Assembly (NCBI GenBank): GCA_963674965.2
Contig: CAXXFL010000005.1
Coordinates: 800,001-864,000, forward strand
Source of the DNA: a bacterium
GTDB lineage: Bacteria > RBG-13-61-14 > DATKZS01
DNA: 64,000 nucleotides
Direction: 5' to 3'
Within the stretch, counting starts at the first letter, position 1; each line of letters starts with the position of its first letter. Below the pieces are notes generated by a model that saw only the letters and a program-made list of their open reading frames with translations, searched no databases and was not told the DNA's origin. Of this stretch, positions 4,596 to 19,624 are shown piece after piece. The position numbers and the translations under genes were made by a program.

Positions 4596-5135
4596 ATGTA
4601 TAGAGAGATGGATGAAGACAGGAAGAAGGCAGGGATTGTTGGGGAGACGGAGGGAGCCCGTAGGGCGACCGGAGTCTCCCCAACCGGGACGGCCGAGCCG
4701 GAGGACACTCCGGCCAAGCGGCCCGAGCGGGGAGGGGCGCCGATCATTCTTCCCGACCCGGAGGTCCCGGAAAAGCCCGCCCGGCGGCGCTTCACCGCGG
4801 CTTACAAGCTCGCAATCCTCGGGAAGGCCGACGCCTGCTCGGGGCATGGCGAGGTCGGCGCCCTGCTGCGCCGGGAGGGCCTTTATTCGTCGCACCTGAC
4901 GGCCTGGCGCAAGCAGCGGGACGAGGGGGCCTTGAAAGCGCTTTCGCCCGTAAAGCGGGGCCGCAAGCCCAAGGCCAAAAACCCGCTGGCCGATGAAGTG
5001 GCCCGCCTCGAGCGCGAGAACCGGAAGCTCCAAAAGCGGCTCGAACAGGCCGAGATGATAATCGACTTCCAAAAAAAAGTTGCCGATCTGCTGGGGATAC
5101 CCCTGGCCAAGCCGCCCGGCGAAGAGAGCGAATGA
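4596..5135 (+). CDS. IS3-family transposase OrfA (HTH)
   Basis: RRRFTAAYKLAIL...LLRREGLYSSHLTAWR and a coiled coil. An A8G run at 5071-5079 allows a stop-free -1 shift into the orfB frame. Confidence 0.9.
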   Translation: MYREMDEDRKKAGIVGETEGARRATGVSPTGTAEPEDTPAKRPERGGAPIILPDPEVPEKPARRRFTAAYKLAILGKADACSGHGEVGALLRREGLYSSHLTAWRKQRDEGALKALSPVKRGRKPKAKNPLADEVARLERENRKLQKRLEQAEMIIDFQKKVADLLGIPLAKPPGEESE

Positions 5136-6148
5136 TGGAATCGGCAAGCACGGCCGCTCCCCGGGTCGGCGTCAAGGCCGCCTGCGAGGCCCTGGGCCTG
5201 TCGCGGGCAACGTTTGACCGCCGCGCTAAAATTCCCTTCGGGCCTCCGCCGCCGAGGCGCGCGGCCAAGCCGGCAAGGTCGTTGAGCGAGGACGAGCGGC
5301 GCCGGGTGCTGGACGGACTCCACTCCGAGCGCTTTGCCGACAAGGCCCCCCGCGAGGTCTGGGCAACGCTCCTGGACGAGGGGACATGGCTGTGCTCGGT
5401 CCGCACCATGTACCGCGTCCTCGACTCGGAAAAGGAAGTCAGGGAGCGGCGCAACCAGCTTCGGCATCCCCGATACAAAAAACCCGAGTTGCTGGCCGAG
5501 GCCCCCAACCAGGTCTGGTCCTGGGACGTCACCAAGCTCAAGGGACCGGCCAAATGGACCTGCTACCAGCTCTACGTGATCATGGATATCTTCAGCCGCT
5601 GCGTGGTGGGCTGGATGATCGCCCGCCGCGAGAGCGCCGAGCTGGCCCGCCGCCTGATCGGGGACAGCATCCGAAAACAGGAGATCGAGCCGGGACAACT
5701 CACAATCCACGCCGACCGGGGGAGTTCGATGAAATCAAAGCCGGTGGCCTTCTTGATGGCCGACCTGGGCGTGACCAAGAGCCACTCGCGGCCCCACGTG
5801 TCCGACGACAACCCCTACTCGGAAAGCCAGTTCAAGACCATGAAGTACCGGCCCGAGTTCCCGAGCCGGTTCGGCTCCATCGAGGACGCCAGGGCCTTTT
5901 GCGTGAAGTTTTTCGATTGGTACAACCGCGAGCATCGGCACACCGGGATCGGCCTGATGACGCCCGAGATGGTCCATTACGGAATGGCGAGCGAGATCGT
6001 GGCCGCCCGGCAAAAAACGCTCGACCACGCCTATGAAAAAAACCCGGAGCGCTTCGTGAAAAGACCGCCGACGGCGCCGGAGTTGCCCGGCAAAGCGTGG
6101 ATCAACCCACCGGAGAAACCGGAGGAAACAAACAGTTTGCCACACTAA
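5132..6148 (+). CDS. IS3-family transposase OrfB (rve/DDE)
   Basis: PNQVWSWDVT, IHADRG and DNPYSESQFKTMK catalytic motifs; ATGA overlap with orfA. Confidence 0.95.
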   Translation: MMESASTAAPRVGVKAACEALGLSRATFDRRAKIPFGPPPPRRAAKPARSLSEDERRRVLDGLHSERFADKAPREVWATLLDEGTWLCSVRTMYRVLDSEKEVRERRNQLRHPRYKKPELLAEAPNQVWSWDVTKLKGPAKWTCYQLYVIMDIFSRCVVGWMIARRESAELARRLIGDSIRKQEIEPGQLTIHADRGSSMKSKPVAFLMADLGVTKSHSRPHVSDDNPYSESQFKTMKYRPEFPSRFGSIEDARAFCVKFFDWYNREHRHTGIGLMTPEMVHYGMASEIVAARQKTLDHAYEKNPERFVKRPPTAPELPGKAWINPPEKPEETNSLPH

Positions 6149-6320
6149 ATTCAGGAAAGGCGTGTCTCATTTTGCTTGACACATTCCGCTATTTGAAAAT
6201 AAGGTATCAGAGTTTTTCGTCTTATATGGATGAAATGAAATAACGAGAAACGGCAATAATATAAATGTAACTGTAAACATTTTTCGAGACATCTCATTAC
6301 TCCTTCTCGAGGTATGGCAA

Positions 6321-6483
6321 ATTTGGGGACGGCATCAATATCTCGCCTCTTTTCCTTTATCTGGGGGCAGTGTACTTAATTGCTGAAAATCATCTGGGTT
6401 CTCTGATAGTGAATATTGATGAAATATTCATAAACACTTGTCCGCCCTGCAATAAAGGCGAGATATGGATGCTGTCGCCATAT
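6321..6483. repeat. 30-bp imperfect inverted repeat pair (REP/MITE-like)
   Basis: 6321-6350 matches the reverse complement of 6454-6483 at 25/30; a related copy is at 24311-24331. Confidence 0.75.
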
Positions 6484-6567
6484 CTCATAAGATTTCTTTA
6501 TCTTTTCATCGGATTATTCCTGGCCTCCTTTTAAAATCAGAAACTCTAAGATTTTATCATGCAACTA

Positions 6568-7776
6568 TTACTCGGTCCCACCATGATTTTTGATGATTTG
6601 CGCAATTTCTTTATGGCCTTTTTCAAGCGCGGCCATATAAGGGGTTTTCCCATTACTGCACTTTGCATTTACGTCAGCCCCATTTTCGATTAGTAGTTCG
6701 ACCATGCCTCTTTTGCCTTCCAAGGCCGCAATGTACAAAGGAGTCTCGCCTGATATAGTCCCCTTCGCATTGATTGTCGCGCCGTTTTGGATCAGGACCT
6801 TGGCGACTCTGACGTGATCAAATGCGCTGGCTATATGGAGAGGCGTCCAATTATTTTCCTCCACAATGTCAACATTTACTCTTTTGGACAATAATAGCTC
6901 AGCTACTTCCACCGCATCCTTTCTTGCGGCCAAGTGTAAGGGACTTAAGTTTGCATTTTCTTCTGCGAGGTTAGGGTCCGCGCCCTTGGCAATCAGGTCC
7001 AAGGCCAAATCTGTCTGTCCCATTATAATTGACTTGTGCAGGGCCGTTTGTCCATCATTCGATTTGGCATCCAGGTCTATGCCTTTAGAGATAAGGATAC
7101 GCGCAACATCCACTTTCTCCTGGGCGACCGCGAGTAATAGGGGAGTATATCCGGCGTCGGTTCGAGCCCCCAAGTTTGCGCCTTTTTCGACCAGCAATTC
7201 TACGATCTTTTTTCGTCCCTGGAAGCTTGCTATGTGAAGGGCGGTCATGTCGTGTTCGGATTTAACATCAAGCTTGGCTCCTCTTTCCACTAGCAATCTC
7301 GCAACATCGTAATTGCCCATATTGGCGGCATGGTGCAGAGCCGTCATGCTTTGATTGTCCTGTACGTCGATCTCAGCTCCAGCGTTAAGTAACTGTTCGC
7401 AAGCCTCTCTCTGTCCTTTGTGTGCCGCCATCAACAGAGGCGTAAATCCAACCTTATCCGTGGCTTCAATATCCGCTCCATTAGCCAAGAGCAAGGTTAT
7501 CATCTCATTATTTCCCAAGTGAGCGGCAAAGTGAAGAGGCGTATGATTTTTATATCTCTCTCTGGAGTTGACCTTTTTAGGCTTCTTTTCGAGTGTCTTC
7601 CTGACCTCGGATATATCACCATTTGCCACTGCCTGATGAATCTTTCCGCCCCATACAGTCTCAGGACATAAAAGAAAGAAAACCACCATAACTAGAAGTG
7701 GTTTTATAACCCCTTTTTGGCAACCGGAATTATGCGGCATCCCGCCTTCAATATAATTTTTACCTGATCGATCCAT
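6568..7776 (-). CDS. Ankyrin repeat protein, probably secreted (start uncertain)
   Basis: Ten TPLH/TALH-type ankyrin repeats and a hydrophobic segment KPLLVMVVFFLLCPETVWG near the N-terminus; low GC. Confidence 0.92.
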   Translation of the reverse strand: MDRSGKNYIEGGMPHNSGCQKGVIKPLLVMVVFFLLCPETVWGGKIHQAVANGDISEVRKTLEKKPKKVNSRERYKNHTPLHFAAHLGNNEMITLLLANGADIEATDKVGFTPLLMAAHKGQREACEQLLNAGAEIDVQDNQSMTALHHAANMGNYDVARLLVERGAKLDVKSEHDMTALHIASFQGRKKIVELLVEKGANLGARTDAGYTPLLLAVAQEKVDVARILISKGIDLDAKSNDGQTALHKSIIMGQTDLALDLIAKGADPNLAEENANLSPLHLAARKDAVEVAELLLSKRVNVDIVEENNWTPLHIASAFDHVRVAKVLIQNGATINAKGTISGETPLYIAALEGKRGMVELLIENGADVNAKCSNGKTPYMAALEKGHKEIAQIIKNHGGTE

Positions 7777-8121
7777 TTTTCACCAGCCCTCACTAGAGTT
7801 TTATTGTCCATGATCTCATTTCTGTTTCTACTTTTGAGAGAAATCTTTGGCCTTGATGCCCATGAAACACTCTTTGAACATACCAATCCGTAAGCCCCAG
7901 GTCAAACTTAATATTTGTCCTCGAAAAACGCCGCGCAGCTAACCATGACCAAGCGCCGTCCGGTAGTGATGGGACAGCGGAAAGGCGGTTGCAGTTCCAG
8001 GGGCTGGGTGGCGCATCTGTGAGCAATCCGAAGGATTTTTTGCATGTCTGGAGAACCGTCCGGCCTATCCTTCCCGCGCCTTCGGCGCCCTAATAGGCAA
8101 GCTATCAGGGCCACCCGCGAT

Positions 8122-8174: not shown

Positions 8175-10034
8175 TTATTTCATGGCTGTGGTATTGGTTA
8201 CCTTCGGCTCGTGGCAGAAGGCGCAGTTGCCGATGCAGTCGGCCTCGGCGTTGCATCCCATGGCGTCTCCGTTCATGCGGTGACAGGTCAGGCACAGGCC
8301 GTGCATGGCGTGCTTGTAACCGGGCGCCCACCTGGTGACGCCCTTGCCATAGAGCTTCTCGGCCGTCATGGGATACTGGCCGTCCTTGTCGTGGCACTCT
8401 ACGCATCCCTTGGCCGTTGCCTCGGACTTTTCCTTGTACGACTCGTGGCACTTGTCGCAGGAGTCGTTATTTCCCATCCGCTCCTTGTGTTTGTCGTGGT
8501 CGAAGATATCCGTGTCTACCGCCATGTCGGCGTGGCAGAGGTGGCAGGAGGTCGCATGGTCGTCGGGTCTTTCGAGGTGATGGCATTTCACGCAGGAGTC
8601 CTCGCCGCCCATCAGCTCCTGGTGGACGTCGTGGGGAAAGTTCACGTACTCCGCGGAAAGGTTGCCGTCGATCTTCAGCACGGCCCTGGTCTCGTCTACT
8701 CCCTTCGCCTTCTCGACCGGCTGGGGAGTGGGCTCGAACTTGCTCGTGCCCTTGCCCAGGAAGGCCAGATAGGCCAAGGGTATGGTGATGACCACGATGA
8801 GCGACACCTTGAGGCCGTCCTTGAACTTGATCATGGAGAAGGCTTCCCGCAGCGTGAACTGGGGGGCCATGTCGTGATGGACTCCCTCGGCCTCGGGCAC
8901 GTGGCAGGCCTCGGGGGCCTCGAGGATATAGAACCTCTCGAGGAGGAAAAAGAACAACAGGGCCGCCGCCGCGGGAACGCCAAGACAAACGACCATCTCG
9001 GCCAGGGAGGGAACGTAAACCCTCTCGGCGAAGCGGAAGTATCCCACGAAGCCCACGTCGAGACGGTGCATGACCAGCCCGATAAAGGCGGGCACGCTGA
9101 AGGCGTACAGGCCGGGCACGGTCTTTCTCCATTTGCCGCTTAGTCCGATGATGACCGGTATTATGGCCTGGAGTGTAATTTCGATGAGGAATAGTTTTCC
9201 TTCCCAGCCGGCGTCCGAGCCGAACACCCAGTTCCACTTGCCCTCGGCCGTAAGCACGATGAGGCGGATGGCCAGGAAGATGGCCAGCAGGACCGCGGAA
9301 ATCCTCGCCACGCCGGAGAGGACCTCGAGGTCGGGCTTTCTTCTATACAGCCACGAGACTATGAGCATGATGAGCACGATGGTGGCCATGCCCGCTCCCA
9401 TGGCGGAGATGAAGAACTCGATCGGTATCCAGAAGGTGTGCCACAGGGGGTGGAGCCTGGTATAGGACAGCATGAAAAGGGAGCCCAGCGAGCTGTGGTG
9501 CATGGTCGAGAGGGTCACGCCCAGGGCGATGATGGGCAGGGCCATCTCGTGCAGGAAGTGGGTCAGCCGGGGAAAGGGAAAGCGCTCGAGGATAACGGGC
9601 ACCATCTCGTAGGCGGTGATCATCCAGTAAACGGACACGCACCAGAAGACCTCGAAGAGGAAGGAGTGTGGGTTCCAGATGAGGAACGGGTGCCATCCGC
9701 GCCATGGGAGACCGATGTCGAAAACGAGAGCCGTAAGTGACGCCCCGTATCCGAGGAAGCCGATGAGCACGGCTATTCTTCCGATGGACCTGTATTTATC
9801 GGCGTACCAGATGTTAATGATAAAAGCTACCACGAATCCGGAGGTGGCGAGAGCGGCGCCGGCGACCATGTTGAAAATCTTCCACATGCCCCATGGCAGT
9901 CCGTCGGACATGTAGGACGCGGCGCCGAGTCCGAAGGCGAACCTTCCGACCACGGCCACCAGGGCGGCGAAGGACATGACCCAGAGTATTTCTTTTATCC
10001 GCTTGAGGGCGGTGGAGTCGGACTTAATCATCAC
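8175..10034 (-). CDS. NrfD/HybB/HmcC-like integral membrane subunit fused to a C-terminal hexaheme c3-type cytochrome
   Basis: DGLPWGMW, DIGLPWR, SFLFEV.WC, LSTMHHSSLGSL and LHPLW motifs; six CxxCH motifs after an extra TM helix. Confidence 0.88.
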   Translation of the reverse strand: MMIKSDSTALKRIKEILWVMSFAALVAVVGRFAFGLGAASYMSDGLPWGMWKIFNMVAGAALATSGFVVAFIINIWYADKYRSIGRIAVLIGFLGYGASLTALVFDIGLPWRGWHPFLIWNPHSFLFEVFWCVSVYWMITAYEMVPVILERFPFPRLTHFLHEMALPIIALGVTLSTMHHSSLGSLFMLSYTRLHPLWHTFWIPIEFFISAMGAGMATIVLIMLIVSWLYRRKPDLEVLSGVARISAVLLAIFLAIRLIVLTAEGKWNWVFGSDAGWEGKLFLIEITLQAIIPVIIGLSGKWRKTVPGLYAFSVPAFIGLVMHRLDVGFVGYFRFAERVYVPSLAEMVVCLGVPAAAALLFFFLLERFYILEAPEACHVPEAEGVHHDMAPQFTLREAFSMIKFKDGLKVSLIVVITIPLAYLAFLGKGTSKFEPTPQPVEKAKGVDETRAVLKIDGNLSAEYVNFPHDVHQELMGGEDSCVKCHHLERPDDHATSCHLCHADMAVDTDIFDHDKHKERMGNNDSCDKCHESYKEKSEATAKGCVECHDKDGQYPMTAEKLYGKGVTRWAPGYKHAMHGLCLTCHRMNGDAMGCNAEADCIGNCAFCHEPKVTNTTAMK

Positions 10035-10957
10035 TCGCCCTCCTTCCCCGAGTCCGGGCCCGGCCCGTCGTCATGGCATACCTCGTCGATAAATGCGGTC
10101 TGGGCGCCCTCGGGTCCGGCGGCCCCATGTTCTCCGTCGCCTCCGCTCATAAGGTGGGAGCGTCTTTTTAAAAACCACATGCTCATGATGCCGCTAAAGA
10201 AGATAATAAACTGGAAAGGCGTCCACCAAACCCACGGCTCCACCTGGTGCGGTATGGACTGGGTGGACAGTTTCCCGGCGGCCATTTTTTTAAGCTTGGC
10301 CGGATCGGGTATTTTAAGGGCGTCGCCGAGGGGCACGTCCGAGATGTACATTACGGATGTCCCGCCGAACTCGCTCTCTCCCCAGATATGGTCGATGTAC
10401 TTGCCGGGGTCCTTCTTGATCCTGTCCCTGGCCTCCTTGATGAGGTCGTCGCGGTCTCCGAAGATGGTGGCGCCCGTCGGGCAGGCCGCCACGCAGGAGG
10501 GGCGGTTGTCCCGCTCGCTGGCCCGGCACTCCTCGTTCATCTTGCACTTGACCACGTAGGGCACGGGCTTGTCCCACTCGTAGCGGGGGACCATGAAGGG
10601 ACACGCCAGCATGCAGTAGCGGCACCCGATGCACTTGTCGGCGTCGTAAACGACCGGCCCGTCCTCGCGCTTGTCGAACGCTCCGACCAGGCAGGCGGCC
10701 TTGCAGGCGGGATCGATGCAATGCATGCACTGCCGGCGCACGTTCCTTATTTCCCCGGCGCTTTTGCCGGCTATCTTGACGATCGAGGTGAGCCTCCTGC
10801 CGCTCAGTCCGTCCTTCGCCTTGTAATGGGCGGGGACGTCCCTGGGCAGCTTGTTAGCCTGAACGCACGCCTCGACGCATCTCTCACATCCAATGCACTT
10901 GGTCACGTCGGTGAGGATGCCCTTCATTTTTCCGTTGCCGGAATGGCCCGAGCTCAT
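10031..10957 (-). CDS. HybA/HmcB/NrfC-like 4Fe-4S dicluster protein with a C-terminal membrane anchor
   Basis: CIGCERC..AC, CMHCIDPAC...C, CIGCRYCMLACP and KC..C...PSCVAACP motifs; TM helix followed by KRR. Confidence 0.9.
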   Translation of the reverse strand: MSSGHSGNGKMKGILTDVTKCIGCERCVEACVQANKLPRDVPAHYKAKDGLSGRRLTSIVKIAGKSAGEIRNVRRQCMHCIDPACKAACLVGAFDKREDGPVVYDADKCIGCRYCMLACPFMVPRYEWDKPVPYVVKCKMNEECRASERDNRPSCVAACPTGATIFGDRDDLIKEARDRIKKDPGKYIDHIWGESEFGGTSVMYISDVPLGDALKIPDPAKLKKMAAGKLSTQSIPHQVEPWVWWTPFQFIIFFSGIMSMWFLKRRSHLMSGGDGEHGAAGPEGAQTAFIDEVCHDDGPGPDSGKEGE

Positions 10958-11004
10958 TAAAAGCCCTCCTTATATCCACCGCTGAGGATCGTCTCGGCGG
11001 CCTT

Positions 11005-12522
11005 TTATCGTTTGACGTGGCAATCGTCGCAATCGGTCGGACCGGCCAGCCTCTCGTGACAGACGATGCACGAGTCGTGCACCACGTCGCCCAGGCTGGG
11101 TATGCCCGTCCTCCATTCCTCGACCGGGTTCGTTTCCTTTTCCGATACGTGGCACTCGCCGCACTTGAGGGGAACGTCGGTCCCCTCGGGGCAGTCGAGG
11201 CCGCCGCATTTAAGGACCCGTTTGCCGTCCTTTTTCCAGGTATTGTGATGGCACTCCCGGCAGGAGAAGGCCATGTCCTGGGCGTGGAACCGGTGCGACC
11301 AGTTGGCCTCGCCCTTGGAGGTCTGGTGCATGAACTGGCCAAAGCTCCTGTCCGGGGCGTGACACCCCTCGCACTCGGTGGGACCGTCTTTTTCCTTCTC
11401 GTGGCAGCCGATGCATCCGGTGGCCTCTCCGCCCTGGTTCCAGTGCATGGCGTCGGCCAGGGACGGCACGTCCTCGAACTGAAGATCGTCCCGCCCGTGA
11501 CAGGCGCGGCAGGCCAGGTAAGGCTCGTTCTCCACGCCGCCGTGCTTGTGGTGGCAGACATTGCAGTCGCGCTCGGAGGGCGCGGCGTGACGCTCGTGGC
11601 TCCAGACCACGGTCCCGGCCGTTCCGCCGGGGAGCATGGACGGGTTCGAGCGGTGGCACTCTCCGCAGGTTATGGGCATGCCCTTGCCCGCGTCGGGATG
11701 ATCGGCGTGGTGGCAATCGAGGCAACGCTCGTGCAGGGCCTCCTCGACGCTGGGCGCGCCCTCCTTGACGGCCATGCCGGTATGGCAGTCCACGCACCTT
11801 TCGGCGCCCAGCTCGGGGTTGTACTCGGTATGACAGGTGAAGCAACGCTTGTGCGCCAGTTCCTCGTGGTCCTCGATGCCCGTGCGCATGGAAAGGGACA
11901 TTACCTCGGCCGGCTGGTGGCAGGAGTCGCAGGCCCGGTACTCGCTCTCGAGCACGGGCTTTTCCTCGGTCCCCTTGTCCTTGTGGTGGCAGTACTCGCA
12001 GTCCAGCTCCATGTAGCGGGAGTGCTCGCGGTGGTCCCACTCGACCTTGCCCATACGGCCGGTGAAGCGCTGCATATGGCAGTCGCGGCAACCCACGGGT
12101 CCCTGGTTCTTGACCACGTGGCAGCCCATGCACTTCGAGTGATAGGCGGTCATCGAGTCGCTCGCCGCGGGTCCCACGCCCTCCTCTTTTTTCATCATTT
12201 CCTTGAGGCGGACGTCGGCCAGCACCACGGAGTCGGCGCTGCTTTTCAGATGGTGACAGTCCTTGCACGGCTTGGGCGTGGTGGCCCCGGCTTTTTCCGC
12301 CGCGTCCATGGCGGACTTGTGGTGGCAGTCGGTGCACTTGACGTCCTTCATCCGGGCGTGAAGCTCATGATTCCAGATCACGTCGCCGATCCTGGCCGGC
12401 AGGGTATGGTCCGGCTCGCCGCTGGGGCGAAGGAGCATGCCTCCCGCGCCGGTCCCGATGAGCACCAATATGGCGGCCAACAGATACTCGACTTTGATTT
12501 GTTTACCTTTCACTGCTATCAT
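11005..12522 (-). CDS. High-molecular-weight c3-type multiheme cytochrome c, 18 CxxCH (HmcA-like)
   Basis: 18 CxxCH counted in four modules (4+6+4+4), each opening with WxHxxH; N-terminal signal/anchor. Confidence 0.92.
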   Translation of the reverse strand: MIAVKGKQIKVEYLLAAILVLIGTGAGGMLLRPSGEPDHTLPARIGDVIWNHELHARMKDVKCTDCHHKSAMDAAEKAGATTPKPCKDCHHLKSSADSVVLADVRLKEMMKKEEGVGPAASDSMTAYHSKCMGCHVVKNQGPVGCRDCHMQRFTGRMGKVEWDHREHSRYMELDCEYCHHKDKGTEEKPVLESEYRACDSCHQPAEVMSLSMRTGIEDHEELAHKRCFTCHTEYNPELGAERCVDCHTGMAVKEGAPSVEEALHERCLDCHHADHPDAGKGMPITCGECHRSNPSMLPGGTAGTVVWSHERHAAPSERDCNVCHHKHGGVENEPYLACRACHGRDDLQFEDVPSLADAMHWNQGGEATGCIGCHEKEKDGPTECEGCHAPDRSFGQFMHQTSKGEANWSHRFHAQDMAFSCRECHHNTWKKDGKRVLKCGGLDCPEGTDVPLKCGECHVSEKETNPVEEWRTGIPSLGDVVHDSCIVCHERLAGPTDCDDCHVKR

Positions 12523-12624
12523 CCCTTTTCACGCGGGACGCCATATCCCGCGTCCGATTTGCGCCGGCGGCCTTTGCCGCTATCTTATTTTTTACGGCGG
12601 TCTTTTCCGCCCTGGTGTTTCAAA

Positions 12625-13101
12625 ATGTCCCGTTTCGGCATAATCATAAAAACTTCCGACGGCCGCGCCGTCGTCCGGACCTCGCGCCGGGGCGTTTGCG
12701 AGTCCTGTTCCGAGCGCGAGACCTGCACCTTCGAGACGGCGCTCGGTAAGGACGTCCCCGAGGAGGTCGAGGTTTTAAACCCGATCAACGCCTCGACCGG
12801 AGACGCGGTCGAGTTCGACCTGCCCGGCCATTCCGAGCTTAAGGTCTCCCTCCTCATCTGGGCCGTGCCCCTCGCCGGGCTTATTCTCGGCGGAGCGGCC
12901 GGCGCGCTGGCGGGCGACGCGCTGGGCGTCGACCCCAACCTGACCACCCTGGCCGGAGTGGCCGTCGGCCTCGCCGCCGGAATGCTTCCGGTCATCCTCA
13001 TGGACCGCGCGGCCGCGAGCGACCCCAAATATACTCCCCGCGTAATCCGGGTCGTGCCCGTCTCCACCTGCCCGACCTCGGTCAGGGAAGACGCCCCCTG
13101 A
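12625..13101 (+). CDS. RseC/MucC family membrane protein
   Basis: Real part of ORF 11017-13101: MSRFGIII...RRGVCESC...NPINASTGDAV...LIWAVPL and two TM helices. Confidence 0.8.
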   Translation: MSRFGIIIKTSDGRAVVRTSRRGVCESCSERETCTFETALGKDVPEEVEVLNPINASTGDAVEFDLPGHSELKVSLLIWAVPLAGLILGGAAGALAGDALGVDPNLTTLAGVAVGLAAGMLPVILMDRAAASDPKYTPRVIRVVPVSTCPTSVREDAP

Positions 13102-15321
13102 TCAGGGCGAGTTACGCAAAAGTTCCTCCAGCTTCTCGAGGCCCGACTTGTCGGTACCCTCGAGTATCTTTTTATGCTTGTCCTTCTCGGCGTCCGAGTA
13201 AAAACAGATCGTGCCGCAGCGCATGCACCGGTTGGCCTCCGCCTCGATAAGGTCCTGGGTAAGGTTCAGGTCGACCTCGTCGAAGCTCTTGATCCTCTCC
13301 TTGGCCGGAAGCTCGGGCTGAGGCTGCTTCGGGAGCTTGGCCACGCCGAACACCGGCTCCTCGCCCGAGTCGGGGTTTCGCGTGGGCTTGTAGGACACGC
13401 CCTTGGGAAAGCGCATGTCCTTGCCCTCGAGATAAAGATGGATGCTCCGCGCCGCCTGCCTGCCCGTGCCGATGGCCTCGACCACCAGGCCCGGACCGGT
13501 CCAGATGTCGCCCGCCGTAAAGATGTGGGGCACGGTCGATTGAAGCGTTTCCTCGTCGGCCACGATGGTGGCCCACCTGGTCAGTTCGAGGCCCCGCTCC
13601 TTCATGTCATCGCTCAGCCAGTCGGTGCGGGGCCGCTGGCCGATGGCGGCGATGACCACGTCCACGTCCATCAGGGTCTCGGACCCCTCCTTGGGAACGG
13701 GCCGGCGACGTCCCGAGGCGTCGGGCTCTCCCAGTTCCATCTGGATGTACTCGATCTGTTTTAACTTGCCGTCCTCGCCGGCGATCAGCCTGGTGGGGGC
13801 CGCCAGGAAGTGGTACTGCACTCCCTCGTGCTCGGCCGCCACTATCTCGACGTCGTTGGCGGGCATTTCCTTCCTGGTGCGGCGGTAAAGGAGGATGACC
13901 TCGGCCGCGTTCATGCGCAGGGAGCTGCGGCAGGCGTCCATGGCGGTGTTGCCGCCGCCCACCACCACCACGCGCTTGCCCGCCAGGTCCACCTTGATCC
14001 CCAGCTCTCTTTTCTGGAGGAACTCGGTGCCCTTCCAGACGCCCTCCATGTCCTCGCCCTCGACGCGGAGGGACGAGTTGTCCCACGCTCCCATGGCCAG
14101 GAGGATGGCGTCGAACTCCTTCTCGAGCTCGGCTATCTTGATGTCCGTTCCCAGGTTGACGTTGTATTTCGCCTCGACGCCCAGGTCGAGAATCTCCTGG
14201 ATTTCCCAGTCGAGTATCTTCTTGGGCAGCCGGTACTCGGGGATGCCGTAGCGGAGCATGCCGCCGTAGGCCGGCTTGTTGTCGAAGATGGTGACGGCGT
14301 GACCCATCCTGCGCAGGAAGTAAGCCGCCGTCAGGCCGCAGGGACCGCCGCCGATGACGGCCACCTTCTTGCCCGTGTCGGGCAGGCACGAGGGCTTCTT
14401 GCGCTCGGGCAGGGCCCTTTCCCAGTCGGCCACGAAACGCTTGATATAGTTATGATGGACCGGCTCGTCCTCGATGGCGACCCTCCTGCATCCGGCCTCG
14501 CAGGGGGCCGGGCACACGCGGCCGCACACCAGGGGCAGGGGGTTCCTTTCCTTGATGATATTAACCGCCTCCTCGTATTTGCCCTCGGCCGCGAACTCGA
14601 CGTAGGCCGGGATGTCGATCTGGGCCGGGCAGAGCTGCTTGCAGGGGGCCAGGCACTCGTCGCTCGTATTGAAATGGAGGAGTCTCTGTGAGGTCGAGTA
14701 CAGATGGATGACGTCCATGGGACAAATCTTTTCGCAGGTCCCGCAGCCCACGCACTTGGAGGCGTCCACCTCGGGCGTTCCCTCGGGCCCCATCTTCAGG
14801 GCGCCGAAGGGGCAGGCCTCGACGCAGGAGCCAAGGCCCAGGCAGCCGTGCTTGCACCAGATGTCCCCGCCCCATACCTCGGCCATGGCCCGGCAGTCCA
14901 TTACGCCGTCGTAGTAATATTTCTTGACCGCCCGATAGCCGCCGTTGCAGTAGTGGTCGGCGATTTTAGGCTCGACGAACCCGACCTCGCCGCCCATGAC
15001 CTTTGCCACCTTGGCCGCCACGTCGGGGCCGCCGGCAATGCAGGCGTTCACGGGCGCGTCACCGGCCACGATGGCCTCGGCGCAGGCCGAGCACCCGGTG
15101 AAGCCGCAGCCGCCGCAGTTGGCGCCCGGCAGGGAGTCCTCGACCTGGACCACGCGGGGGTCGACCTCGACGTGGAATATTCGGGAGGCCGCCGCCAGGA
15201 CTATGGCCGCCACGCCGCCCACCGCCAGCATCAGCAGCATGGGCAAAAGGGTCAGCATGGTCGGGTTGCCAGAATAACTCGCGTAAATGTCCTGCATTAT
15301 TTTCGCGATAGAGTCCATCAC
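13102..15321 (-). CDS. rnfB: RnfB fused to a GltD/NfnB/SudA-like FAD/NADP(H) oxidoreductase
   Basis: TM plus LPGANCGGCGF.GC and ferredoxin motifs, then APC...CP, CGRVCPAPCE, IGGGPCG, GGMLRYGIPEYRLP, GGGNTAMD and YRRT. Confidence 0.9.
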   Translation of the reverse strand: MMDSIAKIMQDIYASYSGNPTMLTLLPMLLMLAVGGVAAIVLAAASRIFHVEVDPRVVQVEDSLPGANCGGCGFTGCSACAEAIVAGDAPVNACIAGGPDVAAKVAKVMGGEVGFVEPKIADHYCNGGYRAVKKYYYDGVMDCRAMAEVWGGDIWCKHGCLGLGSCVEACPFGALKMGPEGTPEVDASKCVGCGTCEKICPMDVIHLYSTSQRLLHFNTSDECLAPCKQLCPAQIDIPAYVEFAAEGKYEEAVNIIKERNPLPLVCGRVCPAPCEAGCRRVAIEDEPVHHNYIKRFVADWERALPERKKPSCLPDTGKKVAVIGGGPCGLTAAYFLRRMGHAVTIFDNKPAYGGMLRYGIPEYRLPKKILDWEIQEILDLGVEAKYNVNLGTDIKIAELEKEFDAILLAMGAWDNSSLRVEGEDMEGVWKGTEFLQKRELGIKVDLAGKRVVVVGGGNTAMDACRSSLRMNAAEVILLYRRTRKEMPANDVEIVAAEHEGVQYHFLAAPTRLIAGEDGKLKQIEYIQMELGEPDASGRRRPVPKEGSETLMDVDVVIAAIGQRPRTDWLSDDMKERGLELTRWATIVADEETLQSTVPHIFTAGDIWTGPGLVVEAIGTGRQAARSIHLYLEGKDMRFPKGVSYKPTRNPDSGEEPVFGVAKLPKQPQPELPAKERIKSFDEVDLNLTQDLIEAEANRCMRCGTICFYSDAEKDKHKKILEGTDKSGLEKLEELLRNSP

Positions 15322-15372
15322 CCACCTCTTTTAATGACAAGTAAAACCATTTAGTACGGCCTCATCCAAAAA

Positions 15373-15984
15373 TCAGATCATGCCCTTGAAGGCGAAAAAG
15401 CTAAGGGCCAGAAGGCCGGCCGTGACAAGGCCGATCCCCGTTCCATCCAACACCTTGGGTATCCGGGATATCTCGAACTTCTCCCGGATGCCGGCGAAAA
15501 GAATCAGCGCCAGCCCGAAGCCGCAGGCCGCGGCGGCGGAGTAAACCAGGGCCACGATCAGCTCGTGGCCGGCCCAGACCTTGGTGTACTCCTTGAAATT
15601 TTTTATGTTCAGGAGCGTGACGCCCATGACGGCGCAGTTGGTCGTTATCAGGGGCAGGAAGATACCGAGCGACTTGTAAAGGGCCGGTATGGATTTTCTC
15701 AGGAACATCTCGACGAACTGGACCAGGGTGGCTATAACCAGGATGAAGGCCAGTGTCTGAATATACTCGAGCTTAAGGGGCTTAAGGAACATGAAGTAGG
15801 CCAGCCAGGTGAAAAGGGCGGCCAGGGTCAGGACGAAGACGACGGCCCCCGCCATTCCCACGGCCGTGTCCATTTTCTTGGACACGCCCAAAAAGGGGCA
15901 GTTGCCGAGGAACTGGGCCAGCAGTATGTTGTTGATAAAGATGGCCGCCACAACCAGGGCGATCATATCCGTGAAGACTTCCAT
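15373..15984 (-). CDS. rnfA: Rnf complex subunit A
   Basis: NNILLAQFLGNCPFLG and LGIFLPLITTNCAV. Confidence 0.95.
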   Translation of the reverse strand: MEVFTDMIALVVAAIFINNILLAQFLGNCPFLGVSKKMDTAVGMAGAVVFVLTLAALFTWLAYFMFLKPLKLEYIQTLAFILVIATLVQFVEMFLRKSIPALYKSLGIFLPLITTNCAVMGVTLLNIKNFKEYTKVWAGHELIVALVYSAAAACGFGLALILFAGIREKFEISRIPKVLDGTGIGLVTAGLLALSFFAFKGMI

Positions 15985-15996
15985 GTTCTTTTCCCC

Positions 15997-16605
15997 TTAC
16001 TTGTTGCCCAGCTTGCCGAGCACGTTCATCACGCCGAGCATAAGGCCAAGGGCCATGAAGGCGCCGGGGGCCTGCTGGAGGATGGCGAAGGGCTCGAAAT
16101 TAAGGCCCATGGCCTCGAAAAGCTTCCACCCGAAAATCTCGCCGGCGCCGAAAATTTCCCTGAGTCCGCCCAGCACGGTAAGGGACATGGTAAAGCCGAG
16201 TCCCATTCCCAGCCCGTCGGCCATGGAGGCGATGACTCCGTTCTTTTTGGCGAAGGCCTCTGCCCTTCCCAGTATGATGCAGTTGACCACGATCAGGGGA
16301 ATGAATATTCCCAGGCTCTCGTAAAGAGGATACACGAAGGCCTTGGTGAACATCTCGACGCAGACCACGAATGTGGCCACGATCACGATGTAACACGCGA
16401 CCCTGACCTCGTCGGGTATGACCTTTCTGAGGGCGGAGATGAAGACGTTGGAGCAGACCAGGACGAAGGTCGCGGCCAGCCCCATGCCTATTCCGTTTTC
16501 CATGGACGTGGTTACGGCCAGGGTCGGGCATAGTCCCAGCACGAACCGGAAAGGAGGAATCTCCTTCCATAGTCCCTTGGTAAATTCCTGAGTGATGGTA
16601 CTCAT
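15997..16605 (-). CDS. rnfE: Rnf complex subunit E
   Basis: LGLCPTLAVT and LGIFIPLIVVNCIILGRAEAFA. Confidence 0.95.
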   Translation of the reverse strand: MSTITQEFTKGLWKEIPPFRFVLGLCPTLAVTTSMENGIGMGLAATFVLVCSNVFISALRKVIPDEVRVACYIVIVATFVVCVEMFTKAFVYPLYESLGIFIPLIVVNCIILGRAEAFAKKNGVIASMADGLGMGLGFTMSLTVLGGLREIFGAGEIFGWKLFEAMGLNFEPFAILQQAPGAFMALGLMLGVMNVLGKLGNK

Positions 16606-16623
16606 ATTCCCAATCTCCCGCTC

Positions 16624-17244
16624 TTATTTAACGGCCTCTTCAAGCTCGTCCTTGTGTTGGTCATAGGTTGCCTTGGCTTTTCTGATGGCGTCGGCCACGG
16701 CCCCGCTGGACTTGGTAGCCCCGCTCACCTGGTCGATGATCCCGCCGTTTTTCTTGATCTTGAAGACGGAGTCCTTGCTCATGCCGATGAACTGATGCTG
16801 GAAGGCGGGCTCAGTAACCCTGGCGCCCAGGCCCGGGGTCTCAGAGTGAGTGGTGATACCGATGCCGTCCAGGTTTCCCGACTGGATATTGAAGCCGACC
16901 ATGACGCCGATGTTGCCGCCGTAGCCGCCCTCCCCCTCGCGCTCGATCACGATGGTGTTTGGCTTGCCGTCTTTTTTCGTCACGAACATAAGAAGTTCCT
17001 GTTCCTCTCCGACGTCAATCATTTTATAGCTGGAGAGAAGCTCTTGCGTGACCTTTTCCTCGTCCGCCTCGCTCATCTTGCCGGAAACTCCCTCGATGAT
17101 GCTTATCACGGCCGGGACCTTTTTAAACTTGAGCACGTTCTGCTCGCCCTTTTCCTTGGTGAGCCTGTTAAGTCCGCCGAGGGCGATTCCGCTGATGAGG
17201 CTTATTCCCACCAGGACGACGATCATTTTGATCATGTTACCCAT
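16624..17244 (-). CDS. rnfG: Rnf complex subunit G (FMN-binding)
   Basis: N-terminal TM, GYGG, HSETPGLG and the IDQVSGATKSS flavinylation motif. Confidence 0.93.
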   Translation of the reverse strand: MGNMIKMIVVLVGISLISGIALGGLNRLTKEKGEQNVLKFKKVPAVISIIEGVSGKMSEADEEKVTQELLSSYKMIDVGEEQELLMFVTKKDGKPNTIVIEREGEGGYGGNIGVMVGFNIQSGNLDGIGITTHSETPGLGARVTEPAFQHQFIGMSKDSVFKIKKNGGIIDQVSGATKSSGAVADAIRKAKATYDQHKDELEEAVK

Positions 17245-18223
17245 TTTGGATCACCACCTCCGTAACCTTGGGCCTGATCCTGTCAAGCAAGGGGTTAAGG
17301 ACGTTGGACAAAAGCACGGCGAAGGGTATGGCGTCGGGCCATTGTCCATAGGTCCGAATCAGCATTATAAGGAGTCCCATGCATATCCCGAAGAGCCAGG
17401 CGGGCAGATTGTTGGTGGGGGAGCTGGTCGAGTCCGTTGCCAGGAAGAAGGCCGCAATAATGACGTGTCCGGAAATAAATTGAGCGGCCATGATCTCGGC
17501 CAGAGACCCGCCGCCCAGTTTTTCCGGCGCCACCGACCCGAAGATCAGCGAGCCCAGGATTACGCCGCCGATCACGGCCGCTGGTATCTGCCACCTAATA
17601 TGGCCGAGGGCGCAAAGTGCGATCCCGCCGGCGGCGGTGGTAAGGATCACGGCGAAGTGGGCCGAGGCGATGCTTTTCATTCCCACCGGATAGATATGGT
17701 GGGGCCATGAAAGAAGGAGTATAAGCCATCCCACCATGGCCGGATGGAACGGATAACTTCCGATGCCGCCGTAAAGCTGCTTGCCGATGAGTATGGCCAG
17801 GAACACGCCGATGACCAGGGTCCACCAGGGCACCGAGACGGGCATGAACATGGCCACTAAAAGTCCCATCAGTGCCCCGTGTCCGTTCATGGCGTGATAG
17901 GGCTGGCGGAAGAGCACCTGGATCAGGTACTCGGCCGCGACCCCGACGCCCATGCCCATGGCCAGGACCCCGCCGGCCCCGATCGAGGCGAGGAGGCCGG
18001 GACTGATCCCGAACTCCCGAACGATGGACCCGAGAAGCCACTCGAGCCCCGTGGCCCGGCCGAGGACGTGCATTTCATCGGTCATGAACCCGTGGGCTAT
18101 GACCCCGATGGCGGCCGCCGGAAGAAGCGCCAGAATGAAGGCGTAGTTCATCTGGGTGACGCTCGTCTTCGAGCGCCAGTGCGGCCCGGGACCCACGGTG
18201 AACAAAGTCTCTCTAGACTCCAT
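17237..18223 (-). CDS. rnfD: Rnf complex subunit D, atypical (no [ST]GAT flavinylation loop)
   Basis: GPH, KQLYGGIG..PFHPA, FLATD..SSP and LIRTYG.WPD..PFAVLL.N motifs; position in the operon. Confidence 0.88.
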   Translation of the reverse strand: MESRETLFTVGPGPHWRSKTSVTQMNYAFILALLPAAAIGVIAHGFMTDEMHVLGRATGLEWLLGSIVREFGISPGLLASIGAGGVLAMGMGVGVAAEYLIQVLFRQPYHAMNGHGALMGLLVAMFMPVSVPWWTLVIGVFLAILIGKQLYGGIGSYPFHPAMVGWLILLLSWPHHIYPVGMKSIASAHFAVILTTAAGGIALCALGHIRWQIPAAVIGGVILGSLIFGSVAPEKLGGGSLAEIMAAQFISGHVIIAAFFLATDSTSSPTNNLPAWLFGICMGLLIMLIRTYGQWPDAIPFAVLLSNVLNPLLDRIRPKVTEVVIQNG

Positions 18224-18253
18224 TATCTACCCCCGCAAATTTATACCAAGCGC

Positions 18254-19624
18254 TCATCCGGCCGAGGCCTCGGAGACGGCCGGCTCGTTTTGTTCCTTGC
18301 AAGCCTCTTCCGCCTCTTCCCGCGCTTTCTTATCCTTGGCCTTTTGTTCGGCCTCGTTTCTAATCCTTGTTACTTCCCGCTTGGCGAGCCGGATCATCTG
18401 CACCAGCGGCCTCCTGGCCGTGCAGACCATGGCGCAAAGACCGCATTCGACGCAGTTCATGACTCCCAGGTCGTCGGCGGGCTCGAAGATCGAGAACTCC
18501 GAGTATCTTCCCAACAGGCTGGGCTGGAGGTTGACCGGGCACACCGACACGCAGGCGCCGCAGCTTACGCAGGGCTCGTCGCTCCAGGGTAATATGTTTT
18601 CCCGGGGAATGAGCATGACCGCGTCCAGCCCGGCGTCCACCGGGGCCTCGAGCGAGTACTGGGCGATGCCCCGGAGGGGGCCGCCGGCCAATACCTTGTC
18701 GCCGTCCCTGGGCTTGAGTCCCATGAAGGCGAACAGGTCCTTTAGCTTGGCGCCGATGGGAGCGCGAAGGTTGGCCTTGGCCTCCCCTTTTGGCCCGATA
18801 AAGGTGACGACCTTTTTATCCTGGACCTTGCCGTCCCGGATGGCGTCCAGGGCCGCCAGGGCCGTTCCCGCCGTGATAACGCGGACGCCCTTGCCGCCGC
18901 CGGCCCTAAGGGCCACCATGGGCTTCAAGGTCATGGGGTACTCGGGGGGCACGGAAAGGACCTTGACGCCCGTGCCGCCGGCCGACTTGCCCGTCTGGCC
19001 CGCGCTTTTGTCATGGGCCGCCACGTAAACGTCCTTGGCCCCGGCCATCTTGCCCAGGACCTTGGCCGCGATGAAAACGTCCTCGGACCTCCAGCGGAAA
19101 ACCTCGGAGGTCGAGAAGACCTCGGGCTCGCGGTCAGAGGCAAGCACCACCAGGGTCTCGACCTCGACGTCCGCCTCGGGACCAATGATCTCGCCCAGGG
19201 GCCTGGGCGTATAGGACTCGGTCAGTATGCCGGCCTCGGCCACCCTGGCCCAAAGTTCCCGGGCCGAGGCGGTTTCCGGGTCCATGGGCTTCCAGGCGAC
19301 GGGTGAAGAATCGGGATCGGGATCGACGGCCACCGAGTGGCCCACGTAATGGTTCCTGGCGTCGGGACCGGATATCACGCCCACTACCTTGCCCTTTACC
19401 GGGCAGACCACGGCCTTTTTAACGCCGTCGCTTCCCAGGAACTGGCCGGGCTTGACCTGGTCCCCCTCCTTGACCAGGGCCTCGTAGGGGACCCCGGTCC
19501 CGCTGAAAAGCGGGAAGACGAGGCTCGAGGACGCGGCCGCGTCCTTGATGGCCAAGTGCTGGGATTTAAGTGGGAACTTCGGCCGCCTAAACCCGAAGAG
19601 CCTATCCGTAATTTCGTCAAACAT
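18254..19624 (-). CDS. rnfC: Rnf complex subunit C, atypical (FMN/NADH motifs degenerate)
   Basis: VKEGDQVKPGQ barrel, SLBB-region GGPLRG and two 4Fe-4S motifs (CVSCGACVSVCP, CVECGLCAMVC); first gene of CDGEAB. Confidence 0.85.
   Translation of the reverse strand: MFDEITDRLFGFRRPKFPLKSQHLAIKDAAASSSLVFPLFSGTGVPYEALVKEGDQVKPGQFLGSDGVKKAVVCPVKGKVVGVISGPDARNHYVGHSVAVDPDPDSSPVAWKPMDPETASARELWARVAEAGILTESYTPRPLGEIIGPEADVEVETLVVLASDREPEVFSTSEVFRWRSEDVFIAAKVLGKMAGAKDVYVAAHDKSAGQTGKSAGGTGVKVLSVPPEYPMTLKPMVALRAGGGKGVRVITAGTALAALDAIRDGKVQDKKVVTFIGPKGEAKANLRAPIGAKLKDLFAFMGLKPRDGDKVLAGGPLRGIAQYSLEAPVDAGLDAVMLIPRENILPWSDEPCVSCGACVSVCPVNLQPSLLGRYSEFSIFEPADDLGVMNCVECGLCAMVCTARRPLVQMIRLAKREVTRIRNEAEQKAKDKKAREEAEEACKEQNEPAVSEASAG

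Follow-up and report, generated by a model that had tools for sequence, protein, structure and literature searches.

An Rnf2-type gene cluster with a loop-less RnfD and an adjoining multihaem cytochrome, Fe-S and NrfD operon: a candidate route from NAD(P)H and ferredoxin to menaquinone

Results

Gene content of the cluster

The cluster analysed here occupies positions 8175-19624 of a bacterial DNA stretch of 64,000 nucleotides (the window) and consists of ten genes: rnfCDGEAB, encoding the six subunits of an Rnf complex, an rseC-family gene in inverted orientation and a three-gene operon for a multihaem cytochrome, an iron-sulfur (Fe-S) protein and an NrfD-cytochrome fusion (Table 1). A motif check found the gene content and coordinates, the 18 and 6 CxxCH haem motifs of the two cytochromes, the cysteine pairs of RnfA and RnfE and the SGAT motif of RnfG to be as an earlier note on this DNA had described them. 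The rseC gene converges on rnfB and diverges from the gene for the cytochrome; conserved Cys residues occur in its product, for which two membrane helices are predicted.

Table 1. Genes of the cluster, listed from rnfC towards the NrfD fusion
Gene or product	Position	Strand	Length and features
rnfC	18254..19624	-	456 aa; N-terminal barrel-sandwich domain and two CxxCxxCxxxC [4Fe-4S] motifs; without GxGGxxFP and ECEP
rnfD	17237..18223	-	328 aa; member of the loop-less clade; PF03116 222 bits, TIGR01946 below cut-off
rnfG	16624..17244	-	206 aa; FMN_bind domain with D-Q-V-S-G-A-T behind an N-terminal membrane anchor
rnfE	15997..16605	-	202 aa; GLCP and VNCI cysteines both present
rnfA	15373..15984	-	203 aa; GNCP and TNCA cysteines both present
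rnfB fusion	13102..15321	-	739 aa; RnfB Fe-S part and NfnB/GltD-like flavoprotein
rseC family	12625..13101 (probable start)	+	~158 aa; PF04246 78.7 bits
18-haem c3-type cytochrome	11005..12522	-	505 aa; 18 CxxCH; membrane-anchored, HmcA-like
Four-cluster Fe-S protein	10031..10957	-	308 aa; HmcB/HybA/FdnH-like
NrfD-cytochrome fusion	8175..10034	-	619 aa; HmcC/HybB-like; 6 CxxCH in the C-terminal domain

Input module and outward path: RnfB, RnfA/E and RnfG

The rnfB product is a fusion protein. Its residues 25-214 align to solved RnfB and the RnfB models match residues 25-232, the membrane anchor and the RnfB Fe-S domains being placed at ~25-215. Residues ~200-710 align to flavoproteins of the NfnB/Stn/GltD type with E values from 1e-128 to 1e-72, which bears out the earlier claim of a GltD/NfnB-like flavoprotein joined to RnfB. 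Two [4Fe-4S] sites (Fer4_20) and Rossmann folds for flavin adenine dinucleotide (FAD) and NAD(P)H (Pyr_redox_2) were recognised in the fused module (~220-635), and the C-terminal tail carries a CxxCxxxC motif. Against the model NF009410 the protein scored 512 bits, the cut-off being 516. The best solved relatives of the fused domain (E 1e-128 to 1e-94) bear the deposited names NfnA (9n5u), NfnI alpha subunit (5jca_L), molybdopterin oxidoreductase (9bov) and formate dehydrogenase-O major subunit (8oh5_C); we take 8oh5 to be the Stn transhydrogenase. Nfn and Stn enzymes bifurcate electrons.

The cysteine pairs of RnfA/E and the cofactor sites of RnfG and RnfB are kept in the relatives belonging to the RnfD clade defined below, and the G-A-T of RnfG is invariant in 12 aligned clade sequences. 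The best NCBIfam model for the window RnfG is RnfG_DVU2794. The predicted input module and outward path, made up of RnfB, RnfA/E and RnfG, are intact and conserved.

Return path: RnfC and RnfD

In the Pfam search the window RnfC matched RnfC_N and domains of ferredoxin type; it reached 16.5 bits for Complex1_51K (cut-off 31.2) and the SLBB domain was not matched; against TIGR01945 it scored 188 bits (cut-off 246). It was aligned to the solved chains 7zc6_C (C. tetanomorphum), 9eri_C (A. woodii) and 8ahx_C (A. vinelandii). Both CxxCxxCxxxC motifs matched the solved RnfC perfectly, the residues 'tesytprpl' fell opposite 'ggatfpt' of 7zc6_C and 'sdrepe' fell opposite 'aecepy', so the alignment and the Complex1_51K score agree with the earlier description of an RnfC that lacks the flavin mononucleotide (FMN)/NADH motifs. 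These motifs were found in 0/9 clade RnfCs aligned; the full set of eight Fe-S cysteines is present in eight of the nine, the ninth having one Cys changed to Ser.

The window RnfD aligns to solved RnfDs as two blocks, with a joint of 17 residues compared with 50-80 in those proteins, and ~35-50 residues are missing between its residues 179 and 197. The periplasmic loop, which bears the flavinylated threonine (Thr) in canonical RnfD, is thereby shortened to ...YPVGMKSIASAH....

The loop-less RnfD clade and its gene neighbourhood

A large protein collection was searched with the window RnfD and the best 120 matches were listed; the first 92 rows, which include the window protein, were taken as the clade. 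These rows are 43-100% identical to the window RnfD, after which identity falls sharply to ~31%. In the alignment the loop is deleted in 88/88 clade RnfDs of at least 280 aa. The clade records are labelled SAR324, Deltaproteobacteria TL4, Proteobacteria, Planctomycetaceae and Myxococcales, and some come from the window's own phylum; within the 13 species genomes of that phylum a clade RnfD (53-59% identity) is present in 4/4 other genomes of the window's family. Counts of the clade from the scans of species genomes and metagenomes are lower bounds, the metagenome scan having added at least 6 clade loci.

A quick maximum-likelihood tree (LG+G4) of 64 RnfD sequences, thus of one subunit, was rooted by choice on 11 canonical rows. 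All rows without the Thr lie on one side (Shimodaira-Hasegawa-like approximate likelihood ratio test, SH-aLRT, 87) and the 24 rows without the loop group together (SH-aLRT 98). This group sits within the Thr-less side, beside rows labelled Desulfovibrio, Pseudodesulfovibrio and Desulfobulbaceae, and not inside the Rnf2 group of Desulfobacterales. Recent decay of RnfC and RnfD, which the earlier note had named as a possible objection to its reading, was ruled out, as the loop is absent from all 88 clade RnfDs and the FMN/NADH motifs from all nine clade RnfCs, and the features are common to the clade proteins and to the wider lineage.

Fifteen clade loci were examined (the window, L003-L006, L092-L100 and L139), five of which end before or within rnfB. 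In 10/10 clade loci that extend past rnfB the next gene on the rnf strand encodes a big cytochrome of 16-18 haems, so the linkage of the cytochrome operon to this Rnf type that had been read from the window extends to its relatives. In three of the ten (L003, L006 and L100) the cytochrome gene follows rnfB directly on the same strand, within ~90 bp, and rseC is found inverted upstream of rnfC. The Fe-S gene is present in 8/8 and the NrfD-haem gene in 7/7 clade loci reaching that far. Records that bear different phylum labels and have ~50% protein identity still show the adjacency of rnf and cytochrome genes, and in a Myxococcales-labelled metagenome-assembled genome the RnfD and the NrfD-haem protein are encoded 8 locus tags apart on one contig. 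In loci that reach far enough the pairing of the loop-less clade with the cytochrome/FeS/NrfD-haem module is invariable.

The cytochrome/Fe-S/NrfD module

The best NCBIfam models for the three products were HmcA (114 bits against 400), HmcB (227 against 420) and HmcC (200 against 550), all far under the equivalog cut-offs. The QrcC and QrcD models gave 73 against 400 and 106 against 570 for the window proteins, and there is no QrcB-like gene in the cluster. The closest solved chain to the 505-aa cytochrome is the 16-haem cytochrome 1z1n; for the Fe-S protein it is FdnH (1kqf_B, E 5e-26). The relatives have 16+5 haem motifs compared with 18+6 in the window.

In the first 150 aa of the cytochrome the N-terminus is basic, and an anchor helix and the first of the haem motifs follow. 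At a threshold of E<=0.01 this part matched each of the 65 small Rnf2 cytochromes (best E 2e-15), and the alignments are collinear from the first residues on, although haem motifs inflate the scores of such matches. Because the anchor and the order of elements are shared, the big and the small cytochromes are regarded as homologous in spite of the inflated scores, and the big one looks like an Rnf2 cytochrome subunit that was enlarged and moved.

In the NrfD fusion an extra membrane helix links the NrfD domain to the C-terminal hexahaem c3-type domain. Such fusions are common: 410 proteins matched at E<=1e-10, and among the 120 listed the domain pair is shared nearly throughout, so that full-length relatives combining these NrfD and cytochrome domains number at least 120. 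The Fe-S protein starts directly at its first cluster motif, only 4 codons being open upstream of the start, and the HybA and HmcB models match it only from model positions 31-39 on. Near its C-terminus there is a hydrophobic stretch followed by KRR, which by eye is a membrane helix; a crude hydropathy scan, which also missed other helices, found none. The extra helix of the NrfD fusion and the KRR behind the hydrophobic stretch suggest that the predicted Fe-S domain is periplasmic.

Two further copies of such genes were noted. In the genome of the window another contig (C1:430281-434608) carries a second pair of FeS (277 aa, without a signal peptide) and NrfD-hexahaem (637 aa) genes, Hmc-like and unlinked to rnf, preceded by genes for two paralogous membrane proteins of 237 and 275 aa. 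A genome of the same class and another family (G001:C3:9110-10900) encodes a full-length NrfD-haem fusion at 45% identity; the RnfD query matched nothing in that genome.

The Rnf2 lineage

Species genomes were scanned with a profile of the clade RnfD and 80 loci were listed, 4 of the clade and 76 of Desulfobacterales type (~30% RnfD identity). In 34 of the 45 Desulfobacterales-type loci that reach far enough an RnfB of at least 600 aa, ~50% identical to the window RnfB, is encoded directly after rnfA, and in 60/62 Rnf2-type loci a gene for an anchored cytochrome with 3-8 CxxCH lies directly upstream of rnfC. No HmcB- or NrfD-like gene was found in the fetched flanks of these loci (0/76). Both FMN/NADH motifs are missing in 75 of the 77 RnfC frames longer than 380 aa from the 80 loci; the two motif-bearing RnfCs belong to second, canonical rnf clusters (L012 and L020) and served as built-in positive controls. 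The Rnf2-type RnfDs read ...Y-P-L... where canonical RnfDs have ...T-A-T-P-L..., with Tyr in place of the flavinylated Thr.

A second sample was taken from 301 genomes of a different phylum, that of the Desulfobacterales locus L016, from which the best 33 RnfD loci (within L176-L213) were used. A motif-less RnfC accompanied 28/28 Thr-less RnfDs, counts that describe a lineage and not independent events, the genomes being relatives. Beside the five Thr-bearing RnfDs the RnfC was motif-bearing in three, motif-less in one (L179) and beyond the locus edge in one. In the samples taken, loss of the RnfD Thr and predicted loss of the RnfC FMN site are paired lineage-wide. The exceptional L179 (G013:C34:47449-51198) combines a normal RnfD (T-A-A-T-P-L) with an RnfC-like protein, of which 359 aa are visible, that has both Fe-S motifs and lacks the FMN/NADH motifs. 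Among the Thr-less loci a short RnfB occurs together with a cytochrome in L212 (RnfB of 321 aa) and in L213 (268 aa, tetrahaem cytochrome), and a decahaem gene lies upstream in L210. Judged from the recognised domains, none of the subunits of a Thr-less complex of this short-RnfB kind would bear a recognisable site for NAD(P).

A 'D. toluolica Tol2-type' Rnf was described by Dorries et al. 2016 (PMC5109826) with an RnfB of ~700 aa that has NAD-binding sites and an RnfC without the NADH-ubiquinone oxidoreductase (51K) and soluble-ligand-binding domains. The same text cites Wohlbrand et al. 2016, Proteomics 16:973, as the source for this type, reports that five of the six Rnf2 subunits of D. multivorans were formed under all tested conditions and says of the partner of RnfC that it 'has to be identified'. 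In a 2025 paper (PMC11887813) Rnf2 is counted in the Desulfobacteraceae core genome and called 'abundantly and constitutively formed'.

Genome context and surroundings of the cluster

The genome (6.5 Mb in 7 contigs, 97.6% complete) gave one PF03116 match, so the window RnfD is its only RnfD/NqrB homologue, and a second, canonical Rnf elsewhere in it was ruled out on these grounds. It has one ApbE, on another contig, a gene of the MqnA/D family (menaquinone synthesis), dsrAB, one NuoD and 11 POR_N matches; neither a haem-copper oxidase (COX1) nor a QrcD above cut-off was found in it. Because of dsrAB, the 11 POR_N matches and the absence of COX1 the organism would live anaerobically, equipped with a Dsr system and numerous oxidoreductases linked to ferredoxin. 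It is predicted to make much reduced ferredoxin, yet to be without a canonical Rnf. One of the 11 POR_N matches lies in the window itself, at 30879-32995, in a two-gene 2-oxoacid:ferredoxin oxidoreductase (POR_N/PFOR_II and TPP_enzyme_C).

Sequencing runs listed for positions 10000-19624 comprised three DNA data sets of one study and no RNA data set. The flanks of the ten genes are unrelated to them. Upstream of rnfC there are 367 bp of non-coding DNA, with no small cytochrome gene, and then a divergent gene resembling that for the L protein of type II secretion systems; at the other end no further Hmc genes were found between 6568 and 8175. On the downstream side the module directly adjoins a region (4596-7776) that encodes a 402-aa ankyrin-repeat protein, in a patch of low GC content (45.8% GC at 6001-8000 compared with ~60% around), and a pair of IS3-like transposase genes at 4596-6148 (HTH_Tnp_1 and rve). 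This region is possibly a recent insertion.

Discussion

What is known and what is new

The earlier note had proposed a new respiratory module. As far as the Rnf core is concerned this was not upheld: the large NAD-binding RnfB and the RnfC without an NADH domain both match the published description, and by its predicted domains the core is therefore of the known Rnf2/Tol2-type lineage (PMC5109826, PMC11887813) and not a new kind of Rnf. Nor is a cytochrome-linked Rnf as such a novelty, having long been proposed for Desulfovibrio (PMC4841214). Four findings are regarded as new. These are the loop-less RnfD clade outside Desulfobacterales, its invariable pairing with the cytochrome/FeS/NrfD-haem module, the predicted homology of the anchor module of the big cytochrome with the Rnf2 cytochrome, and the lineage-wide pairing of RnfD Thr loss with the predicted loss of the RnfC FMN site. 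A literature search turned up no paper connecting an Rnf that has a large RnfB to an operon of Hmc-like or NrfD-haem type, though Wohlbrand et al. 2016 or the supplement of PMC11887813 (fig. S18, Rnf1 vs Rnf2) may already have the cytochrome link; it likewise returned no mention of the loss of the RnfD flavinylation site in sulfate reducers, and the same two sources may already have the RnfD change.

A proposed route from NAD(P)H and ferredoxin to menaquinone

We propose as the most likely explanation, with the chances for and against evenly balanced, that the ten genes encode an ion-coupled path leading from NAD(P)H or ferredoxin through RnfB, RnfA/E and the FMN of RnfG to the cytochrome, and from there through the FeS and NrfD proteins to menaquinone. 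The proposal builds on domain and motif content, conservation and gene linkage, from which we infer each electron-transfer step, its direction and the coupling to ions. The FAD of the NfnB/GltD-like domain joined to RnfB would oxidise NAD(P)H, and/or the Fe-S domains of RnfB would oxidise ferredoxin, and the Fe-S chain of RnfB would pass the electrons to the membrane [2Fe-2S] of RnfA/E and on to the covalent FMN of the periplasmic RnfG. The invariant G-A-T of RnfG and the single ApbE of the genome fit such an outward path. Because RnfD has no conserved flavin attachment and RnfC no FMN/NADH site, the electrons would not return through RnfD-FMN and RnfC-FMN to NAD+ but would leave for the anchored 18-haem cytochrome. 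The hexahaem domain and the four-cluster Fe-S protein would then hand them to the quinone site of NrfD, where menaquinone would be reduced.

NAD(P)H has a potential of about -320 mV and menaquinone of about -74 mV. The membrane core of RnfA/E/G/D would couple this downhill step to the translocation of Na+ or H+, and the whole would act as an NAD(P)H(/ferredoxin):menaquinone oxidoreductase, a functional analogue of the Na+-translocating NADH:quinone oxidoreductase (Na+-NQR) that is differently built. In this dsrAB-bearing anaerobe the electrons would feed the Qmo/Dsr chain of sulfate reduction.

Several observations weigh against this proposal. Two full [4Fe-4S] motifs are present in 77/77 RnfC frames (>380 aa, all 80 loci listed), which argues that the predicted clusters still carry electrons somewhere, a function that the proposed route leaves unused. 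If RnfC were merely structural, in the manner of NqrA, it would be expected to lose its Fe-S cysteines; NqrA is truly cofactor-free and its own Fe-S motifs are gone (PMC12174285). The earlier statement that the outward half is kept and the D/C half disabled is right about the sites in RnfA/E, RnfG and RnfB, but 'disabled' is too strong because all 77 RnfCs keep both motifs while the cofactor-free NqrA lost its own. In two loci whose records bear the labels Deltaproteobacteria TL4 and SAR324, L003 (8633-10918) and L006, a single reading frame of 762-792 aa, counted from stop to stop, runs uninterrupted through rnfC and rnfD; this suggests an RnfC-RnfD fusion protein and likewise argues for an RnfC that still carries electrons.

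The claim that RnfD has no flavinylation loop needs a similar qualification. The ~35-50 residues are missing as described, but residues 184-187 read S-I-A-S and were placed by HMMER opposite T-T-A-T of the C. tetanomorphum RnfD. This remnant fits the relaxed pattern [ST]-x-A-[ST] of the canonical RnfDs among the loci examined, which have S-T-A-T, T-I-A-T, S-S-A-T, S-Q-A-T and similar; the RnfD motif is given as '[S/T]GA[S/T]-like' in PMC8238504. The window RnfD itself may therefore conceivably carry a covalent flavin on S-I-A-S. Of the 88 clade RnfDs 69 have Ala, 11 Ser and 4 Thr at the position of the last residue of this remnant, and a covalent flavin on RnfD is predicted not to be a conserved property of the clade.

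Further objections come from the module and its linkage. The inverted rseC lies between rnfB and the cytochrome genes in seven of the ten clade loci, and because of it the rnf and cytochrome units would be separate transcripts there. No N-terminal signal peptide, Tat (twin-arginine translocation) or Sec, was found in the Fe-S protein of the window or of any clade member. This counts against the proposed route because the route needs the Fe-S protein in the periplasm, and it argues for a placement of the predicted domain on the opposite side of the membrane from that suggested by the helix and the KRR. FdnH-type proteins are exported piggy-back on a partner with a Tat signal, and no such partner is encoded in the cluster. 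FeS-NrfD-haem modules also occur away from any Rnf, as on contig C1 of this genome, and the full-length fusion in G001, where the RnfD query matched nothing, indicates that they are not restricted to Rnf-bearing genomes. In published schemes Rnf2 is placed between the ferredoxin and NAD(P) pools (PMC11887813), and a dhcA mutant of D. alaskensis had no fitness defect where rnf mutants had one (PMC4841214).

Alternative explanations

The last-named schemes amount to a working view in which Rnf2 is a ferredoxin:NAD(P)+ oxidoreductase with its nucleotide site moved to RnfB; the RnfC clusters would be a site for ferredoxin or another carrier, and the cytochrome module would be separate and only co-regulated. 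That it is the published view (PMC11887813), that the RnfC motifs are kept throughout and that FeS-NrfD-haem modules exist without this Rnf all speak for it. It leaves unexplained, however, that cytochrome genes accompany the lineage in 60/62 and 10/10 loci and that the cytochrome N-terminus is common to both sub-types. With the RnfD Thr replaced there is, moreover, no evident cofactor to bridge RnfG-FMN to RnfC, and Thr-to-Tyr mutants of NqrB lose their FMN. We consider this explanation unlikely. An exchange between the two units is denied altogether if the cytochrome/FeS/NrfD proteins are a stand-alone periplasmic cytochrome:quinone oxidoreductase of Hmc/Qrc type, serving electrons from hydrogenase or formate dehydrogenase, and their adjacency to rnf is inherited gene order. 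The inverted rseC in seven of ten loci, the contig C1 paralogue beside two other membrane proteins and the G001 fusion in a genome without a clade RnfD match are what such a module would lead one to find, but the adjacency survives at ~50% protein identity across phylum labels, and the small cytochrome is absent upstream of rnfC exactly where the big one, with the same N-terminal module, is present; the explanation is judged quite improbable.

The remaining alternatives keep the proposed connections and change the course of the electrons. Run in reverse, the system would drive electrons of quinol or periplasmic cytochromes uphill through NrfD, FeS and cytochrome, RnfG, RnfA/E and RnfB to NAD(P)H (or reduced ferredoxin), paid for by the ion gradient, in the service of biosynthesis or autotrophy. 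Sequence fixes no direction, the clade occurs in SAR324-labelled and other records, and the Rnf and NQR cores have been described as reversible (PMC12174285); on the other hand, the 11 POR_N matches and the Nuo homologue of this genome point to an ample cytoplasmic supply of low-potential reductant, and reverse operation is considered improbable. The NfnB-like FAD could also bifurcate the electrons of NADPH between a low branch, the RnfB clusters and ferredoxin, and a high branch, the membrane path with the cytochromes and menaquinone. The close match of the fused domain to 9n5u, 5jca_L, 9bov and 8oh5_C (E 1e-128 to 1e-94) favours this possibility, but the same fold is found in the non-bifurcating GltD and dihydropyrimidine dehydrogenase and no NfnA-like partner is encoded in the cluster, so that we hold bifurcation to be very unlikely.

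Implications for the wider lineage

The proposed exit to periplasmic haems may be extended to the wider lineage of 'Rnf' in which RnfD is without the Thr, RnfC is without FMN and a cytochrome is always present, a lineage that spans sulfate reducers and neighbouring phyla and includes short and NfnB-fused RnfB alike. These complexes would be ion-motive pumps that take cytoplasmic electrons of ferredoxin or NADPH to periplasmic haems and not ferredoxin:NAD+ enzymes, and the loop-less clade would be hard-wired through 22-24 haems and the FeS/NrfD proteins to menaquinone, as an NADPH:menaquinone 'complex I substitute' parallel to Na+-NQR; the RnfC Fe-S clusters would have a new partner. We offer this generalisation tentatively and regard it as doubtful, though possible.

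The pairing of Thr loss with FMN-site loss raises the question whether some short-RnfB Desulfobacterota 'Rnf' may have no NAD site. Desulfobacteraceae are major carbon oxidisers of marine sediments, and the variant in the window gives a testable hypothesis for the role of Rnf2. If it is true, NAD(P)H enters the menaquinone pool by a periplasmic haem wire with ion pumping, and the estimates of energy yield change for sulfate reducers and SAR324-like lineages.

Comparison with known systems

The Rnf2/Tol2-type complexes are the nearest relatives. They share with the window the order rnfCDGEAB, the ~700-aa RnfB with an NAD(P)-binding flavoprotein, the RnfC without Complex1_51K and SLBB, the RnfD without the flavinylated Thr and a multihaem cytochrome alongside, with rseC often nearby. 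The window differs in that its RnfD belongs to a separate, monophyletic loop-less clade (SH-aLRT 98) and in that the small cytochrome upstream of rnfC is missing and the 16-18-haem cytochrome, an HmcB-like FeS protein and the NrfD-haem fusion lie downstream. With canonical Rnf (7zc6, 9eri, 8ahx) it has in common the six homologous subunits, the RnfA/E cysteines, the RnfG flavinylation site, the RnfB Fe-S domains and the [4Fe-4S] pair of RnfC; the lack of FMN/NADH motifs in RnfC, the much shorter RnfD loop without Thr, the extra flavoprotein on RnfB and the cytochrome partners set it apart.

In the MmcA-linked Rnf of Methanosarcina and the DhcA-linked Rnf of Desulfovibrio a multihaem cytochrome is likewise encoded with rnf and has been proposed to exchange electrons on the outer face (bioRxiv 10.1101/2022.07.20.500911; PMC4841214). 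The cofactor sites known in RnfB, RnfD, RnfG and RnfC have been stated to be conserved in M. acetivorans (bioRxiv 10.1101/2022.07.20.500911), whereas two of them are lost here, and unlike the window these systems are without a dedicated FeS/NrfD quinone module. For D. alaskensis vesicles the authors of PMC4841214 report that their attempts at showing ferredoxin:NAD+-coupled ion gradients 'have been unsuccessful'. The HmcABCDEF and QrcABCD complexes resemble the downstream module in combining a multihaem cytochrome of the periplasm with an Fe-S protein of four clusters and a membrane subunit of the NrfD family, and Qrc is an electrogenic cytochrome c3:menaquinone oxidoreductase (PMC13059093). 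The module in the window differs by the absence of HmcDEF and QrcB, by the fusion of a hexahaem domain to NrfD and by an Fe-S protein without a signal peptide.

The logic of the proposed complex is that of Na+-NQR, in which an NAD(P)H flavoprotein also stands at the RnfB-side entry, the nucleotide site of RnfC/NqrA is also lost and quinone is also the acceptor, here a proposed one (PMC4014512, PMC12174285). The published account of the origin of NQR from Rnf involves parallel changes, in which a new flavoprotein that accepts NADH came to stand at the position of RnfB and RnfC was stripped of its cofactors (PMC4014512). The parts are nevertheless different. There is no NqrF-like gene in the cluster, the NQR models scoring far below their cut-offs, and the flavoprotein is an NfnB/GltD-like one fused to a full RnfB and not an FNR-like NqrF; RnfC keeps its Fe-S motifs, which NqrA does not have. 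In NqrB the covalent FMN is retained and quinone binds to this subunit itself, whereas here the quinone site is proposed to lie on a separate NrfD reached through periplasmic haems. If the proposed route is true, the cluster would be a second, independent case of rewiring of the Rnf-to-NQR type.

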